From: Candidatus Kapaibacterium sp.
GTDB taxonomy: Bacteria > Bacteroidota > Ignavibacteria > Kapaibacteriales > JAEUSM01
Length of the DNA stretch: 64,000 bases
Assembly: GCA_016788785.1 (NCBI GenBank)
Contig: JAEUSM010000006.1
Span: forward strand, 473,864-537,863
Direction: 5' to 3'
Part shown: positions 45,001-54,000 of the stretch, piece after piece
How the letters are laid out: every line of letters starts with the position of its first letter
How positions within the stretch are numbered: the stretch's first letter is position 1
Position numbers: made by a program

Positions 45001-48000
45001 AAATTATTTAATGAATAATCTCCTTCTGCAATCAACGTTTCAATTCCTTTTAGCGTTGTTCCTGCAGCAGAAGTACCACTCTGCACCCTTACAGGAAATG
45101 TACCAATATTTTCTGTAATTGTTCCGAATGTTCCTTCACCAGGTCCAAAATCTAAAAAAGAAATTGTAATCCATTGTTTGTATGCTTCAATCCATTGTTG
45201 TTTTGCAATCTGCAATGTCGAAACTGTTGGATTTTGCACAAAAGCATTTACGTCTACTTGAAGTTTGTCTGTTGCCTCTTGTGCTTTTGAAAGTCTTGGA
45301 AGTATTACCTTTTGCAATTGACTTTCCAAAAGAGTCGTCCTATCAAAAGTATCAACAGGTTGTAATGTGTCATCATTATTACAAGAAATGAGACAGAAAA
45401 TTAGCAAAAAATATATCGGAAATTGAAAGAATTTCATAAAGAATTAACGAGATTGTTCGGTTACTAAATTTCTTTTAAATAAGTCCATTTCAGCAGGAGT
45501 AAATCCATAAATTCCTTGTAATTTTGTTACTACTGAAGTTAGCTTCGTTAGACTTTGCGGCTCTTTAACAAATAAATACGGAGTAGCAGTTCCATCTACT
45601 GGGGCATTAACTAATGATAAAATTTCGTTGATTTGTGGCTCTGTGATTATTAACCCACTAAGTCCTTTCATTCCTTTTACAAATCCAATTAATTCTGATA
45701 ATGAATGTAATGCACCAGAAATATCAGTAACAGTTGGAGAAGTTTTAGATAGCTTCGCAACAACATCATATCCATAGTTAATGGCAGTTGCAGCAATAAC
45801 TTTTTCCCAATTTTTCTTTAACTCATTGATTGCAGCAGTTCTTTTTTCGGTATTTTGATTGACTGTCCAATGACGAATTTCAATAAAGTTCTTTTTACAA
45901 GCGAAATACAATCCATTACCACTATTATCATCACGACGAGCAGCATAATTTGCAGTGTAAACATCAGGAAATTGGTGTTTAGTAGCAGTTCCACTATTTG
46001 CAAAACGATAATGAGCACCAAAAAGATTGATAGCTCTATCAACAGCCGTAACTGAGTTATCAGCAAGTACATTTGTGAAAACTTCGTTGTACATTCCGCT
46101 CATGAAAAACCCTTTTTCCAAAAGTTGTTCGTGTTCTAAACCATATTCATCGAATAAATACGCTCCATACACACCTCCTTGGCCATTTTCTTGCACAGTT
46201 TTCACAGGGTCATACGTTCCACCTGATGCTCGAGCAAGTTCTTGAATCGAGTTTTGTATAACTTCTTTATAGTACGCAGAAGTCAAAGTGTTTAAAGAAA
46301 TTGAACCTTGATTGAATAAACTTGTTAAAGTACCAGCTTGAACTTGCGTTCCTGAAACTCTTCCTTTTTTGATTTCATTTACATATAAATTAAAATTAGT
46401 GAGAGTTTGTGCATACATTTGAATTGCAGTGTTATATGTAGTAGAATCATAGACAGTAGGTATTTGTTGGTCTGGATTCACTGGAGAATCTGATGAACAA
46501 GAAGAAAAGAATAATAACGCAACTAACAACAGAGATGAAAGTACTATGTTTTTCATAGGTAAACTGGTATAAATAAAAATTGAGAGTATTATCTTATTTA
46601 GATTTAGTCCAAATATAATATAAATTTGATAAACAACCAAATCCCGACTAAATTACTCGTATTTTATTCGCAATATTTTCAGAATTTAACATAAAGAAAA
46701 AAAGCATAATCTTTTGATTATGCTTTTCTAAAAAAATTTCTCAATTAAATGATTTATATAATTCCTCTTGCCCAACGAAGATATATGAGTGCTACAAAGT
46801 AATTGGATTGTTCTTTTGCTAATTTTTCTTGTGAAGTTGCTAGGAAACGCTCACGTTGATTCACCAAAAACAAGGAAGTTTCTCCAGCAATCAATCTTTC
46901 TCTTTCGAAATTCAATAGTTGAGAAGCTAACGATACCTCTGAGATGAGAAGTTGAATCTGATCAAATGTTCTATTTACAGCTGTAGCATAGAAATTAACA
47001 TCGGCAGTTACAGCAGCATCTAATTGAAGAGATTGGAGATCGATTCTTTTAATTCCAATATTGGCTAATTCTTCTTGTGATCTTGCTTGACGAAAAAGGA
47101 TCGGTTGAGACATTGTAAGACCAAACTTTAAATTACCGGGTCCAACATCACTTAAACCATACATCATCAAGTCTACATTTGCATTGATGTTGGGACGTAG
47201 AAATTCATTTGCTAAATTCAAATCCAAATTTGCCAAATTTCTATCTAATTGTAGTAGTTTTACTTCTGGTCTCAAAAGCTTAGCGTCATTTTGAGCAGCT
47301 TGTATCTCTTGTTCCGATAGTTTATTTATTGTTTGAAAAGGTTCAGGAATTCCAGGTAATGGAGTTTGTTGTTGGTTATTATCCCAAACATAAACTTGCA
47401 AATTCACACTTGCTTGTTCATATGCTTGTTGTTTTTCGAGTAGTTTTCCATTTCGAAAAACAACTTCCAAATTTGCTTCCAATGAATCCATTGCTGCAAT
47501 ATCACCAGCGGTTGCTCTATCTCGAAGTTGTTGTGCACGCTCTTGAGCAATAGTAAACAAATTTTGAGCAATTTGAACTTGTTGATAGGCTTCTGCCCAT
47601 TTCCAATATAGCGACAAAGCTTCGACTAATATTTTGTTTCTCTTTTGTTGAAATTTTGCTTGACCTATTTCTGGTTTTATTTCTGCTTGAAAAAGTTTAT
47701 TTCGTTTTTCATCAGTAAATATGCCTTGACCTAATGGTAAAGAAACACCTATTGAGGCATCAAAAGGAGTGCTGGTTCTATCCGCAGGATTTGTACTTTC
47801 AGCAATGGCACGTCGCATTTGAGCTTTAACTTTTGGTCCGAACATAGATGCAAAAGGAATTTCTAACGACAAATCAAGATCGTTAAGTTTATCTTTTGCA
47901 TCTTGAGTTTTAAGATTGAATCCACCTGAAAGAACTGGGTCAAATAAGCCTCTTGCCCCAAACAACTCTGCTTCTGCTGCAGTAATCTCATATTTTGCTT

Positions 48001-51000: not shown

Positions 51001-54000
51001 AAGACTACTAACCAAATTTCTTTTTTATCACTGCGAATAATTCCAAAAACATCTAAAGCTAATTGGAAGGATGTTTTATCTATTTTACTTGCCATACTCT
51101 TAAATTAACCGTTTAATTTTTAAATTGTTTGTATAACGCCATACCGTAGTCCTTTAGTGCTGACAAAACATGAATTTATTCTAAAAAATTGAAATATAGA
51201 CTTCAAAATCGAAGTTCCTGAAGGCAAAATATCAGCTCTTTCGGGATGAACTCCATTCATATCTTTTAATTCTTCTATTGAAATCGAATGAAATAGCTGT
51301 TCAAACTGACAAAGTTGTTCAAACTGAATTTCATAGTTATGTACCTTCGATTCATCATAAATTTCCAAATTTTGTGCAACTGCAGCAATAGTAGTTGGAG
51401 TTCCTGCATTTGCATAGATAAAGGATGAAGATGCAATGTTCTTTTGAATTTTATCAGGAATACTAAGAAGTTCATTAAAAACCAATTCATGTATATGAGT
51501 AGACTTATCTGACTCATCAAAAAAACGTTCAGTACAAGTTACAGCACCAATAGGAAAACTATTTCTCCATACTATCCCATTATTTTTTGAGCCATAGACA
51601 ATTTCTGTAGAGCCACCACCAATATCAATCACAACAGAAGGTTCATCGTTTTCGACAGTTCCCAAAAATGTATATTGAGCTTCTTCATCACCAGAAATTA
51701 TTTCTATTGGAGCGTGAATATGCTGTGTTAAAGTATTTAGTACATCTTTAGAATTTGATGCAATTCGTAATGCTGCAGTTCCAACGACTCTTAAAGTATA
51801 TGTTCCATAATTTTGTAACAGTTCATAATATTCATCGAGAATCAAACATGCACGTTCTAATGCTGATTGGGAAATATATCCAGTTGAATGGAGTTTTTCT
51901 CCCAATCGTGCAATTCTATGTACATTCGTATATTGATGTTGAGCTGTTTCAATAAGCATTAGCAAGGTATTTGTACCAATATCAATTGCTACTTTAACCA
52001 TCTTAGGCTCTGTTGAGAGAAGATGAGAAAAACTCAAACGTTGACTGAACTAACATTGAAATTCCAAATTTCATAGCATCTTCTTGGGGTAAAAATCGTG
52101 GATTATGAAGTCCCGGCATAGAAACAACATCGTTAGGTTTTACTCCCAACATCCAAAAACATGCAGGTATTTTTTCAGCATAAAATGCAAAATCTTCTGC
52201 CCACATTTTCGGTTCAAAAACTTCAATATTTTGAATACCTTTTGCATTTCTTGCAGCAGTTCGAGCTATGGAAGTAGCAAAGGTATCAGTTACTAATGGT
52301 GGATATCCAATAGATGGATTGCAAACTCCTTCAACTCCATAAAGCTCACAAATTTCAATAGTAGCCTTTTTGATTTTTTCTAACGCTTCAAATCTCCATT
52401 CGTTGTTAAATGAACGAAGGGTGCCCATCATTGTCAATTCTTCCGGAAGAATATTGGTAGCTGAACCAGCATGAATGGATGCAACACTCAAAACCCCAGG
52501 GTATAATGGATTTCTCATACGAGAAACGATAGTTTGTAAATGTTGTATAAGTGCAGATGCTGCCACAATTACATCATTTCCTTTGTGTGGTTGAGCAGCG
52601 TGAACTCCATGCCCACGCAATGTCCAATATAGCTCATCTGCGGAGGCTAACATAGGACCTTCTGCAAAACTAACAGTTCCTACAGTAGCATCAGGATCTA
52701 CATGCTGACCAAAAATAATATCAGGTTTTTGTCCTAATTCTAATAGTCCTTCTTTAAGAAGTATAGAAGCACCACCGGGAGTTTTTTCTTCACCCGGTTG
52801 AAAAATCACTTTTACTTTACCAGGTAGAACCTCTTTATTTGCGAACAGTATTTTTGTCGCTCCCAAAAGCATTGTTGTGTGCATGTCATGTCCACAAGCA
52901 TGCATTACTCCATCATTTTTGGATTTAAATGGTATTTCATTTTCTTCAATTATTGGAAGTGCGTCTATGTCTGCTCGTAATGCCACACATTCACCACCAT
53001 CTGAGCCAAATTCAGCAACAACCCCTGTATTTGCAAGAATAGTAAAGTCCAAACCAATTGATTTGAGTTCTTTTTGGATTAACTGAGATGTATTATATTC
53101 TTGAAACGACAATTCAGGATTCTGATGAATCGTTCTACGTATTTCTACAAGTTGAGGAAACAATGAATTGATGGTTGCATCAAGTAAATCTGAATTCATA
53201 ATAGTTATTTCCTTATTGCCAAGATGTAACAAACCAACGTTCTTCATTTTTTACAACCGAAAACTCTATTGGTTCCAAATGATTAAAATTTGCTTTGACT
53301 ATTGCACTTGTTTGGTTTTGAGAATACGCAATGTCTTTTACTATCAACTCTTTACCTTTGGATCGTGATAATAAACGTTGTACTGATGATAACTTTGATA
53401 ACTTTTCTATTCCATTTAATGGTCGCAATTGTTGGGAAAGCATTAAATTCAAAACTGCTGTCGTGTTTAAAGAATCTAACTCTCTTTTAACTAACATCAC
53501 AACCCCAGTTGGAGATTTTTGGTTAATATCTGTCAATCGAATAACTGTATATGGTTGACGTAACACAATCAACTCACATCCACTAAATACTGTCAAAGTT
53601 ACAATGACAAACACAGAAAATTTCAAATGGTTTATGTAATTCATTATTAACAATTGTACGGGTCTTCAAAAAACGATGATGTCAAATTTAAAGCAATGTT
53701 TAGTGCTTCTGGAATTGCATTCATTGGATGTTGAACAGAAAACGTATGACCCGTTTGGTTTATTTCTTTGTAATGAATGATTTTCTGCGGATTTAATTCG
53801 GGTAATGAAGAAACTTCTTGTGGTCTTATTACTAAATCTTGACTTCCATGGATAAACAACATCGGTTTTGATGTTTTTTGAACTGCATTTATGATGGATA
53901 GTTTTTCCTTATTATGTTGCAAGTCTTCAAAGTAGGAATAGTTTTGATGAAGCATTTGCCCAGTTCTACTATTTGGAATTTCTAATTTCCCTGTTTCTTT

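Follow-up and report, generated by a model that had tools for sequence, protein, structure and literature searches.

Three adjacent genes on the reverse strand of the window (the whole 64,000-nucleotide stretch of Candidatus Kapaibacterium sp. DNA analyzed here) encode an ABC half-transporter, a HlyD-type membrane fusion protein (MFP), and a TolC/OEP-type outer-membrane factor (OMF), and Pfam domain matches confirmed the gene order and domain architecture of this trio proposed in an earlier note. The 586-residue ABC protein (49335–51095), which has the type IV or type I-exporter fold and a dead nucleotide-binding domain (NBD), scored above cut-off against both PF00664 (43 bits) and PF00005 (58.5 bits) and showed the superfamily architecture, in which an ABC_tran domain follows a six-helix ABC_membrane domain. 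It begins ~25 residues ahead of TM1 with no C39 domain detected by Pfam, and no substrate gene was seen among the window neighbors, both as previously stated. The 403-residue MFP (48121–49332; PF13437, HlyD_3, and PF13533, Biotin_lipoyl_2) starts 2 nt past the ABC stop codon and has one transmembrane helix after a short cytoplasmic N-terminus. The most probable start codon of the OMF (46754–48124; PF02321, 102 bits) is the ATG at 48124, whose overlap with the stop of the MFP gene reads ATGA; it yields 456 residues, against 479 for the reading frame extending to 48193, and orthologous OEP genes are called at 455–456 residues. A terminator-like hairpin on the same strand (46698–46729; 14-bp stem and trailing T run), detected by a consensus scan only, lies 25 nt past the OMF stop codon and divides the trio from a downstream DUF4856–imelysin–HTTM–TonB receptor cluster. 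The neighbors of the trio are Ppx, an M20 peptidase, and, behind the terminator, this iron-uptake-type cluster. In this Kapaibacteria lineage no regulator accompanies the trio, which is surrounded by a run of housekeeping genes, an arrangement suggestive of constitutive use.

Residue-by-residue alignment to P-glycoprotein, with coordinates rechecked, divided the ABC protein into a transmembrane domain (TMD; aa 1–335, 50091–51095), which conservation tables identified as the part that the family conserves best, and an NBD homologue (aa 336–586, 49335–50090) that lacks every ATP-binding and catalytic residue. The Walker A remnant GASLSGLSA (49938–49964) has lost its fourth glycine, lysine, and trailing threonine (G381L, K384L, T386A); the Q-loop remnant GIVLPMNELF (49803–49832) has proline in place of glutamine; the signature remnant LPKGMIRK (49632–49655) no longer contains LSGGQ; the Walker B and D-loop segment ILILDQAFEGVA (49560–49595) has glutamine for the catalytic glutamate in ILILDQ and EGVA for SALD; and the H-loop remnant LDITMDS (49482–49502) has methionine for histidine. 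With Walker A, Q-loop, LSGGQ, Walker B, and H-loop all replaced, no functional ATP site was left, and neither tblastn nor hmmsearch with an intact-NBD profile found a second NBD in the operon or the 64-kb window, so the claim that every motif of the operon's only NBD is degenerate held. The wording that all motifs are mutated needs qualification, however, because almost all relatives have a non-canonical Q-loop (whose glutamine is missing family-wide), LSGGQ, and D-loop, and the lineage-specific losses are those of Walker A (G381L, K384L, T386A), the Walker B glutamate (E506Q), and the H-loop histidine. At positions ≥85% conserved in the family, the only changes in the NBD are G381L, K384L, T386A, and E506Q, with H536M in addition, and this confinement indicates that loss was targeted at the ATP site.

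The dead NBD retains its fold, the A-loop Tyr351, and the X-loop residues Thr472 and Gly478, and an AF2 model of the ABC protein had a pLDDT of 75 overall and 84–92 across the NBD. Top fold matches were TM287/288, TmrAB, HlyB, Sav1866, and MsbA, with Foldseek E values of ~1e-29 for the first four. Judged by its sequence, the ABC protein is a structural, not catalytic, member of the ABC superfamily, and the NBD of the Kapaibacteria lineage is a predicted pseudo-ATPase that would keep its fold and TMD contacts and neither bind nor hydrolyze ATP.

Four orthologues from independent assemblies (84–97% identity) carried identical motif replacements in conserved synteny, and independent assemblies agreed on an unbroken ABC reading frame of constant length. 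Compared with orthologues, dN/dS was 0.02–0.08 for the NBD, 0.03–0.06 for the TMD, 0.02–0.07 for the whole ABC gene, 0.03–0.07 for the MFP, and 0.04–0.11 for the OMF, values that are approximate because dS was near saturation (1–2) and that were equal to or lower than those of the neighboring Ppx (0.14–0.26) and M20 (0.04–0.11) genes. The replaced ATP-site residues were kept despite synonymous codon turnover; the leucine at the Walker A lysine position, for example, is encoded by CTA, TTA, TTG, and TTA in the four orthologues. These patterns show strong purifying selection on an apparently functional ABC gene, and the conservation of dead motifs in an NBD under such selection points to the non-catalytic role that the earlier note had made conditional on this result.

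As judged from sequence searches, the ABC gene belongs to a discrete, uncharacterized family of ~1,100 clusters at 50% identity, which is related to HlyB/PCAT-type exporters yet distinct and widespread. A phmmer search of 1.84 billion representatives with the TMD only returned 1,103 clusters at E ≤ 1e-30 and just 2,035 at E ≤ 1e-3, and the family ranged over Bacteroidota, Kapaibacteria, Ignavibacteria, Chlorobi relatives, Melainabacteria, Armatimonadota, and Planctomycetota. Near-invariant TMD motifs were ExxNRFFD in ICL1 (aa 123–130), YHP in the TM3–TM4 periplasmic turn (aa 162–164), and GQLVAAE, which opens TM6 and includes Glu287 (50235–50237), a position occupied by Asn, Ser, Ile, or Phe in ComA, PrtD, BmrA, and P-gp. 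Our ABC protein carries all of these motifs as well as the three-gene operon. A total of 575 relatives came from scans with the patterns EL[VI]NRFFD and YHP[FI]F, and at almost every one of the 80 genome loci kept, the trio was present with a single ABC gene and an adjacent MFP gene. The only recurrent neighbors near 84 family loci were TetR- and ArsR-type repressors, and no recurrent substrate gene was found there; together these observations point to regulated efflux of small molecules, and the repressors suggest small molecules or metals as cargo. In long family members there is an N-terminal domain without conserved cysteine, which had no Pfam or PDB sequence match and whose low-confidence model weakly resembled, as its best match, the HlyB C39-like domain.

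Loss of the ATP site was frequent in this family. Among 135 full-length representatives of 50%-identity clusters, the Walker A lysine, Walker B Asp-Glu, and H-loop histidine were all kept in 21 and all absent in 32, and Walker A was missing in 39–40 (~30%), a figure with which an alignment-free regular expression agreed; these statistics come from a sample made up of the 150 representatives nearest to the query and depend in part on the alignment of divergent NBDs. A neighbor-joining tree required at least seven independent changes per motif, showing that, insofar as the alignments are sound, the site was lost repeatedly and many times independently. The dead ATP site is therefore not an isolated case. 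A second, older, fully dead lineage (P0175–P0187) kept the trio and its synteny, with TMDs 68–93% identical and NBDs 31–65% identical, and TMD identity exceeded NBD identity across subfamilies family-wide. These comparisons show a family that evidently conserves the TMD and the MFP/OMF partnership while its ATP site decays. In the Kapaibacteria dead lineage, unlike the second one, the NBD was as constrained as the TMD, which implies a specific task that the model without ATP leaves unaccounted for and so counts against that model.

Of the two alternatives offered in the earlier note, a functional partner encoded elsewhere or operation without ATP hydrolysis, the evidence leans to the latter: strong conservation of the dead NBD, together with repeated ATP-site loss in the family, makes it probable that these machines work without ATP. 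Our best explanation, in which we place about even confidence, is that the trio forms an envelope-spanning, efflux-type ABC–MFP–OMF conduit with a pseudo-ATPase NBD. The default assembly would be a homodimer whose two sites are equivalent and both dead, because the operon, like that of almost all family members, has a single ABC gene. In such a conduit the membrane domain would carry out export without ATP, either by coupling to an ion gradient or by gated, downhill efflux of small molecules into the HlyD–TolC duct, and the dead NBD may act as a structural dimerization or regulatory module. For the first option, the near-invariant, family-specific Glu287 in TM6 may be the coupling residue, a proposal based on its conservation and on analogy. 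ABC-fold membrane domains provide ion-gradient precedents in LmrA-MD (PMC2704374), MsbA (PMC4979069), and SbmA (PMC8442886, PMC13316013); SbmA/BacA-like SLiPT proteins and LmrA-MD have exporter-type TMDs that perform proton-coupled secondary transport without ATP, and a TM6 carboxylate of LmrA, Glu314, to which Glu287 may be parallel, is required for pH-gradient dependence (PMC2704374). By contrast with our protein, whose constrained 250-residue NBD-fold domain sets it apart from the SLiPT group (a TMD without an NBD), SbmA is an importer that has no NBD and stands outside a tripartite assembly, and LmrA-MD is an engineered truncation. MacAB–TolC pumps also differ, as their MacB/FtsX-type permease carries its NBD at the N-terminus and has a periplasmic domain, whereas the query has a PF00664 TMD and a C-terminal NBD. 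If our explanation is correct, the trio is an export machine that crosses the envelope with a conserved yet ATP-dead motor domain.

Alternatively, the dead subunit could have as its partner a half-transporter from the same family that is ATP-competent and encoded at another place in the genome; the resulting exporter would have one working site of the family type beside one that is fully dead. Heterodimeric exporters in which one site is degenerate are common (PMC7756269), and the metagenome-assembled genomes of Kapaibacteria, taken as a group, contain several paralogous subfamilies in which Walker A, Walker B, and H-loop are intact. Nevertheless, several results make such pairing unlikely. 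First, the family loci nearly always had one ABC gene accompanied by dedicated MFP and OMF genes, which implies that the ancestral state is a homodimer, whereas TM287/288 and similar heterodimers are encoded by two adjacent genes and have one fully canonical site. Second, these heterodimers (TM287/288, TmrAB, BmrCD, and PatAB), which were the best structural matches, retain the non-catalytic site for structural or regulatory purposes (PMC7756269), and that site still binds ATP because the Walker A lysine is kept; the subunit with a defective Walker B or H-loop keeps this lysine, and one signature is canonical (PMC7756269). Our subunit has neither the lysine nor a canonical signature, and both composite sites of the query would be without the Walker A lysine, Walker B glutamate, histidine, and LSGGQ. 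Third, each of the ~30% of family clusters without Walker A would need a partner of its own. Finally, no paralogue occurs within the 64-kb window, and a non-exhaustive search through the NCBI accession series found no co-resident one.

It is also conceivable, albeit decidedly improbable, that the ABC-like protein no longer transports and instead is a membrane scaffold or anchor keeping the HlyD–TolC duct in place for a different pump, tethers the envelope, or acts as a sensor. Such a role would suit a protein that has kept its fold but lost its energy-coupling site entirely, and it would suit the strong conservation of the periplasmic turns of the TMD, which are likely to contact the MFP. HlyD/OEP modules without any ABC partner exist: a SecA_DEAD–HlyD–peptidase M50–GAF module occurs in Planctomycetes, Chlorobi, and other groups (Kamneva et al., 2015, PMC4452313). 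Like the trio, that module has HlyD/OEP components without a working ABC ATPase; unlike the trio, it has a SecA-like ATPase and no ABC-fold protein, and SecA_DEAD, M50, and GAF genes were neither present among the window reading frames scanned against Pfam nor recurrent in related loci. CFTR and SUR, eukaryotic full-length ABCC proteins, are not pumps; they bind ATP and hydrolyze it at one site. As is proposed for the query, they reuse the ABC architecture beyond ATP-driven pumping, but they do not sit in an envelope-spanning duct. Against loss of transport, near-invariance across phyla extends over the entire TMD, cytoplasmic coupling helices and TM6 glutamate included, which is more constraint than an anchor requires; the protein keeps the X-loop residues that touch those helices; and the genes beside the trio include no candidate for an alternative pump.

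A classical type I secretion (T1SS) or bacteriocin exporter, moving a protein or peptide by ATP hydrolysis at a cryptic site, is very hard to reconcile with our results. The gene set of such systems, an ABC gene encoded together with genes for a HlyD-family MFP and a TolC-family OMF, is present; the best NCBIfam matches were NHLP/bacteriocin, LssB, and HlyB-type ABC proteins and HlyD-type MFPs; the N-terminal domain of long family members has its weak likeness to the C39-like domain of HlyB; and ComA is the closest PDB sequence match to the TMD. All NCBIfam scores were nonetheless far under the curated cut-offs. Among PCAT and bacteriocin models (PCAT1, ComA, and NHLP exporters), which gave the top scores, these were 190 of 853 bits for TIGR03796, 182 of 709 for TIGR03797, and 170 of 524 for TIGR01193; T1SS ABC models scored 166 of 726 (TIGR01846), 163 of 693 (TIGR03375), and 130 of 510 (TIGR01842); and TIGR01843 scored 78 of 209 on the MFP and TIGR01844 (TolC) 48 of 225 on the OMF. 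The ABC protein lacks the Walker A lysine needed for any NTP, has neither a C39 nor a C39-like domain, and, unlike PCATs, has no accompanying double-glycine peptide gene. HlyB–HlyD–TolC of E. coli (PDB 7SGR, 8DCK) resembles the trio in architecture and type IV exporter fold, but HlyB has canonical Walker A, Walker B, LSGGQ, and H-loop motifs and needs ATP hydrolysis, and no RTX or other substrate gene was found near the trio, although one may be encoded elsewhere; no substrate gene recurs at the 84 family loci, where TetR/ArsR-type repressors recur instead. The type I secretion or peptide-export label of the earlier note is thus not sustained. A sequencing artifact or decaying pseudogene, for which the unusual motifs and nothing else would speak, is refuted: identical replacements in same-length, intact reading frames from independent assemblies mean neither sequencing error nor frameshift, and the low dN/dS, the synonymous turnover at critical sites, and the high-confidence NBD model equally contradict decay.

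A MacB-type operon, separate and unrelated, adjoins the trio of the second dead lineage. A few family representatives of 340 residues are putatively TMD-only.

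The trio comprised three closely packed genes on the minus strand at 46754-51095. A 586-residue ABC protein (49335-51095; MBL8004028.1, from a 'Candidatus Kapabacteria bacterium' MAG), hereafter the query, contained an ABC_membrane domain (PF00664; TMD) followed by an ABC_tran domain (PF00005; NBD). The gene for a 403-residue HlyD-type membrane fusion protein (MFP; 48121-49332) began 2 nt past the ABC stop and was followed by that for a 456-residue OEP/TolC-type outer-membrane factor (OMF; 46754-48124). A 479-residue OMF reading frame reaching 48193 is an upstream extension of this gene; the 456-residue form, which matches the orthologues, was chosen because its ATG overlaps the MFP stop codon as ATGA. 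Upstream of the ABC start, and separated from it by only 24 nt, was a Ppx/GppA gene. It followed a set of M20 peptidase, small-protein, and alpha/beta-hydrolase genes that run in the same direction and overlap at their ends. At 25 nt past the OMF stop lay a 14-bp hairpin followed by a T run (46729..46698, minus strand), which is the only noteworthy output of the promoter and terminator scans, as a sigma-70 search did no better than chance (34 found, 37 expected from shuffles). Rfam and tRNA scans gave no matches.

Every catalytic motif of the operon's sole NBD was altered, as the earlier note had claimed. In a HMMER alignment to P-glycoprotein (P-gp), all motifs were in register, and the query had GASLSGLSA for the P-gp Walker A sequence GxSGCGKST, VLPMNELF for the Q-loop VSQEPVLF, LPKGMIRK for the signature LSGGQKQR, ILILDQ for the Walker B sequence ILLLDE, EGVA for the D-loop SALD, and ITMDS for the H-loop IAHRL. 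A P-loop that lacks the Walker A lysine and carries leucine at a glycine position is not expected to bind any NTP. An AlphaFold2 model nonetheless predicted a normal ABC NBD shape (pLDDT 84-92), and the model as a whole matched TM287/288, TmrAB, HlyB, Sav1866, MsbA, and PCAT1. The C39 domain was also absent, again as first claimed, because the query begins ~25 residues ahead of TM1. Neither tblastn with the query nor hmmsearch with an intact-NBD profile found a second NBD in the operon or the 64-kb window; only the query gene was recovered.

Multiple observations support the maintenance of this altered domain by selection. First, four clusters close to the query, at 84-97% identity, turned up in a search of 5.8 billion proteins; their sequences stem from independent assemblies (JGI, Logan, ENA, and NCBI), and all have identical dead motifs. 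The motif changes are thus genuine, which answers the earlier concern about sequencing error or frameshift, and they are kept in orthologues. Gene order in the orthologues was also the same (Ppx, ABC, MFP, OMF, DUF4856, imelysin, HTTM, TonB receptor). Second, Nei-Gojobori comparison of the query with three orthologues gave dN/dS values, approximate because dS was 1-2 and near saturation, of 0.02-0.08 for the NBD, 0.03-0.06 for the TMD, 0.03-0.07 for the MFP, and 0.04-0.11 for the OMF, with 0.14-0.26 and 0.04-0.11 for the neighboring Ppx and M20 genes. The dead NBD is therefore under purifying selection, an outcome that the earlier note had proposed as a sign of a non-catalytic role. Third, the replaced residues are maintained through synonymous change: the leucine at the Walker A lysine position was encoded by CTA, TTA, TTG, and TTA across four sequences, the Q-loop proline by CCA, CCG, and CCT, and the alanine replacing threonine by GCT and GCA. 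As judged from alignment and codon evolution, these results show that the query is functional, is the only ABC protein encoded by its operon, and would be unable to use ATP.

Comparison with the next relatives (39-48% identity; Chloroherpeton, Thermochlorobacter, Kapaibacteria, Ignavibacteria, and Bacteroidota) placed the query lineage's losses in context. These relatives retained Walker A (GxSGxGK[ST]T) and the Walker B Asp-Glu, and most also had the H-loop histidine. In Chloroherpeton thalassium (P0011), from a sister clade, Walker A and Walker B were intact. None had the Q-loop glutamine or an SALD D-loop, and almost none had LSGGQ; their signatures included VSIGMRRR, LPLGLIRR, and LSESLLCR, and FGGIE stood in place of the D-loop. 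Where a residue was shared by at least 85% of these relatives, the only NBD changes in the query lineage were G381L, K384L, T386A, and E506Q, plus H536M, and the TMD showed few differences, mostly conservative. This confinement to ATP-site positions indicates targeted removal of the ATP site rather than general decay. NBD-specific rate acceleration was also considered and rejected: the NBD/TMD divergence ratio on the dead-clade branch (1.1-1.3) did not exceed that between intact subfamilies (1.0-1.5), giving no indication that evolution had relaxed in a burst.

The query belongs to an uncharacterized family defined by TMD motifs (ExxNRFFD, YHP, and GQLVAAE) and an ABC-MFP-OMF operon. A phmmer search with only the TMD (residues 1-335) against 1.84 billion 50%-identity representatives returned just 2,035 matches at E<=1e-3 and 1,103 at E<=1e-30, so the family is discrete and sizeable; scanning genomes for TMD patterns specific to the family yielded at least 575 relatives. 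Those listed included Cyclobacteriaceae, Saprospiraceae, Chryseolinea, Ohtaekwangia, Flavilitoribacter nigricans, and Neolewinella, as well as Obscuribacterales (Melainabacteria), Armatimonadota, and Planctomycetota. Of the 80 loci kept from the listed matches, nearly all had the ABC-MFP-OMF arrangement with one ABC gene, and in 3 the OMF gene came first. Three representatives of ~340 residues consisted of the TMD only (P0243, at L093 202-1221; P0317; and P0330); they could be NBD-less members marking an end point of decay, split genes, or assembly errors, and the P0243 stop codon falls inside its 1.3-kb contig.

Loss of ATP-site motifs was widespread in this family. Among 135 full-length proteins within the best 150 TMD-only matches, alignment (with an alignment-free regular-expression count in parentheses) found Walker A, as GxxxxGK[ST], present in 95 (96) and absent in 40 (39), the Walker B Asp-Glu present in 41 (43), and an xSxGQ signature present in 23 (27); the H-loop histidine aligned in 32. 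The Walker A lysine, Asp-Glu, and histidine occurred together in 21 of the 135 by alignment, and 32 had none of the three. In a neighbor-joining tree of 207 members, Walker A, Walker B, and the H-loop each changed state at least seven times. Motifs were nearly canonical in Obscuribacterales (LSRGQ, Asp-Glu, His); Cyclobacteriaceae and Chryseolinea retained Walker A with a Walker B of hhhhND and asparagine or lysine in the H-loop; some lineages had replaced the Walker A lysine with arginine or isoleucine; and a Kapaibacterium relative (L035) had no recognizable Walker A. Three cultured members, Cyclobacterium qasimii, Ohtaekwangia kribbensis, and Flavilitoribacter nigricans, are dead at Walker B and the H-loop. 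Identity between subfamilies was 50-69% for the TMD and 34-57% for the NBD, the reverse of the usual pattern in ABC exporters, where the NBD is more conserved. Conserved coupling elements included ICL1 (ExxNRFFD), ICL2 (SxxKY...E...R...K), and Thr472 and Gly478 of the X-loop. Read from these alignments, the family-wide pattern shows that the ATP site has repeatedly been dispensable, and that the TMD, coupling elements, and MFP/OMF partnership have not. Being family-wide, repeated, and graded, the loss is of greater interest than the earlier note stated; the query, as one gene among many, is less unique.

Following up L035 led to a second fully dead lineage (P0175-P0187; mutual identity 57-100%; one of its MAGs is GCA_964397835.1). 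Its Walker A positions read CTDPADAAL, GPNPLELTY, or ASTPHEAAH and its Walker B hhhhNG or hhhhNN, and several members no longer matched PF00005. The trio was retained with conserved synteny between uvrA and etfBA, and internal identity was 68-93% for the TMD and only 31-65% for the NBD. A sister clade kept GGSGSGKST but had IDS at Walker B and valine or phenylalanine in the H-loop. Because this clade has an intact Walker A and already lacks the Walker B and H-loop residues, the comparison suggests stepwise decay in which hydrolysis residues would be lost first and Walker A afterwards. Beside the second-lineage trio, on the opposite strand (L091 and L092, 1-5043), was a complete TetR-regulated MacB-type operon (OEP, TetR, MFP, MacB permease, and ABC ATPase), so these genomes hold a conventional ATP-driven tripartite pump next to the dead one.

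Clustering of all neighbors of 84 family loci revealed two recurrent partners beyond the trio, together with a few smaller clusters. In 32 Bacteroidota loci the ABC gene was immediately preceded by a TetR-family gene, and in ~8 Obscuribacterales-type loci the OMF gene was immediately followed by a gene for an ArsR/SmtB-like HTH protein, assigned by reading the sequences rather than by family search. Repressors of these kinds, when encoded locally, typically go with inducible pumps that expel small molecules or metals and not with protein secretion. No recurring secreted-protein or peptide candidate and no recurring second ABC gene was found among the neighbors of the 84 loci. Both dead lineages lacked such a regulator and were set within housekeeping gene strings, the first following hydrolase, M20, and Ppx genes and the second between uvrA and etfBA, which suggests that their trios are constitutively expressed. 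About half of the family (P0005-P0033, L032-L064, and others) carried an additional, poorly conserved N-terminal domain of ~160 residues, which was missing in both dead lineages and present in their sister clades. This domain had no Pfam match at E<=10 and no PDB profile match better than E 0.3. A single-sequence AlphaFold2 model of it was poor (pLDDT 52), and its top Foldseek match, the C39-like domain of HlyB (3ZUA; E 3.6e-3), gives a hint that the family may have descended from exporters with a C39-like domain.

How might such a trio work? Alternating access powered by ATP is the defining feature of ABC exporters. We give about an even chance to the query being an ATP-independent homodimeric exporter, in which the TMD dimer would transport without ATP, either using an ion gradient or facilitating, in a gated manner, the downhill passage of a compound into the HlyD-TolC duct, and the dead NBD would remain as a dimerization or regulatory module. 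The ion-coupled version taken separately is possible and rather doubtful. A candidate coupling residue, picked out by conservation, is Glu287 in TM6, a family-specific residue found in ~96% of members, including both dead lineages, and aligned with Asn, Ser, Ile, or Phe in ComA, PrtD, BmrA, and P-gp. Precedents for ion-gradient use include the ABC-type membrane domains of LmrA-MD, which involves Glu314 of TM6 (PMC2704374), and SbmA (PMC8442886, PMC13316013), as well as MsbA (PMC4979069). A broader proposal, which we hold tentatively and at somewhat below an even chance, is that the entire widespread family is ATP-free, with an ion-coupled or facilitative TMD feeding HlyD-TolC and a stepwise-decayed NBD serving as a non-nucleotide dimerization or regulatory module. 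Decay would then have proceeded from the signature and Q-loop to the catalytic glutamate and histidine and finally to Walker A, and the hydrophobically refilled pocket of the query lineage (Leu, Leu, Ala, Met, Met, and Pro) might glue the two domains together permanently. If so, family proteins would be intermediates that arose naturally, linking primary ABC pumps to secondary transporters like SbmA.

The best-surviving alternative, that the dead subunit pairs with an intact paralog encoded elsewhere, is plausible because Kapaibacteria as a group hold several intact subfamilies, and we nevertheless consider it unlikely. The operons are single-ABC units with their own MFP and OMF, the query, in contrast to known degenerate subunits, has neither Walker A nor the signature, and a large fraction of family clusters would each require partners. 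A search for accessions near MBL8004028.1 among other subfamilies, covering 20 clusters, gave only MBL7976206.1, from a different MAG, and a metagenome scan with the query recovered only two orthologous contigs, both already known, and one unrelated weak match. Less probable still is a non-transporting scaffold, since the whole TMD and the coupling helices of this ABC-like protein are near-invariant. We reject a classical ATP-driven type I secretion system or bacteriocin exporter as very improbable: of the earlier assignment to type I secretion or peptide export, the tripartite architecture stood, but all curated model cut-offs for such exporters were missed. An artefact or pseudogene is excluded, with hardly any probability left to it, by the shared dead motifs in independent assemblies, low dN/dS, and synonymous turnover.

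The query thus has the architecture of a tripartite ABC-type exporter and is structurally a type IV ABC exporter without the defining catalytic features. It differs from PCATs in having no C39 domain, is not of the MacB pump type, is not a heterodimer with one degenerate site, and retains an NBD, whereas SbmA-type proteins are NBD-less; the SecA_DEAD-HlyD module (Kamneva et al., PMC4452313) is a different system. Full-text literature searches turned up neither an account of the family nor one of a tripartite system whose ABC protein is fully dead. Arguments on whether ABC membrane domains can use other energy sources have so far drawn on engineered truncations (LmrA-MD) and on NBD-less SbmA. 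The family offers natural, strongly selected cases in which the ATP site is gone and the NBD fold, TMD-NBD coupling elements, and full envelope-spanning partners are kept, and sister lineages supply graded intermediates (Walker A only, Walker A plus Walker B, or nearly canonical). Comparison of orthologous trios therefore makes several questions directly testable: the role of an NBD without ATP binding, the energy for tripartite efflux, and the decay of an enzyme domain into a structural one. Annotation is also affected: the names now in use are 'ABC transporter ATP-binding protein' or 'peptidase domain-containing ABC transporter', and many members fit neither.

The remaining window is ordinary chromosome (LeuRS, PBP, CorA, Lon-like protease, RF-1, and others) with several features of separate interest. 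Directly downstream of the trio, beyond the terminator hairpin, co-directional minus-strand genes at 40654-46640 encode a DUF4856-like lipoprotein, an imelysin (Peptidase_M75), an HTTM protein, and a TonB-dependent receptor, in an order kept in all orthologous contigs. The HTTM protein matched both HTTM (265 bits) and the vitamin-K-carboxylase lumenal domain (188 bits), and the cluster looks like an iron-uptake-type system with a bacterial gamma-carboxylase-like membrane protein. On the plus strand, a 373-residue reading frame at 342-1463 matched Anthrax_toxA (PF03497; 105 bits, residues 8-145) in this free-living Kapabacteria genome, and a 648-residue protein at 35382-37328 contained little besides leucine-rich repeats (LRR_8, 202 bits, 11 stretches). 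Also on this strand, an 833-residue LonB/LonC-like protease (23993-26494; AAA_32, LonB_AAA-LID, Lon_C, and LonC_helical) has an archaeal-type Lon architecture in a bacterial host. Consecutive plus-strand signaling genes at 56818-62858 encode a histidine kinase, a TPR and adenylate/guanylate cyclase protein (680 residues), and a TPR-PAS protein (853 residues), and adjoin RF-1, HD, and phosphatase genes in all orthologous contigs. Finally, proteins at 3614-4993, 5954-7267, 27818-29302, and 39154-40608, among them a beta-lactamase-fold protein and a matrixin-like peptidase, carry Por_Secre_tail, the C-terminal sorting domain of type IX secretion, and the organism therefore exports proteins via a type IX secretion system.
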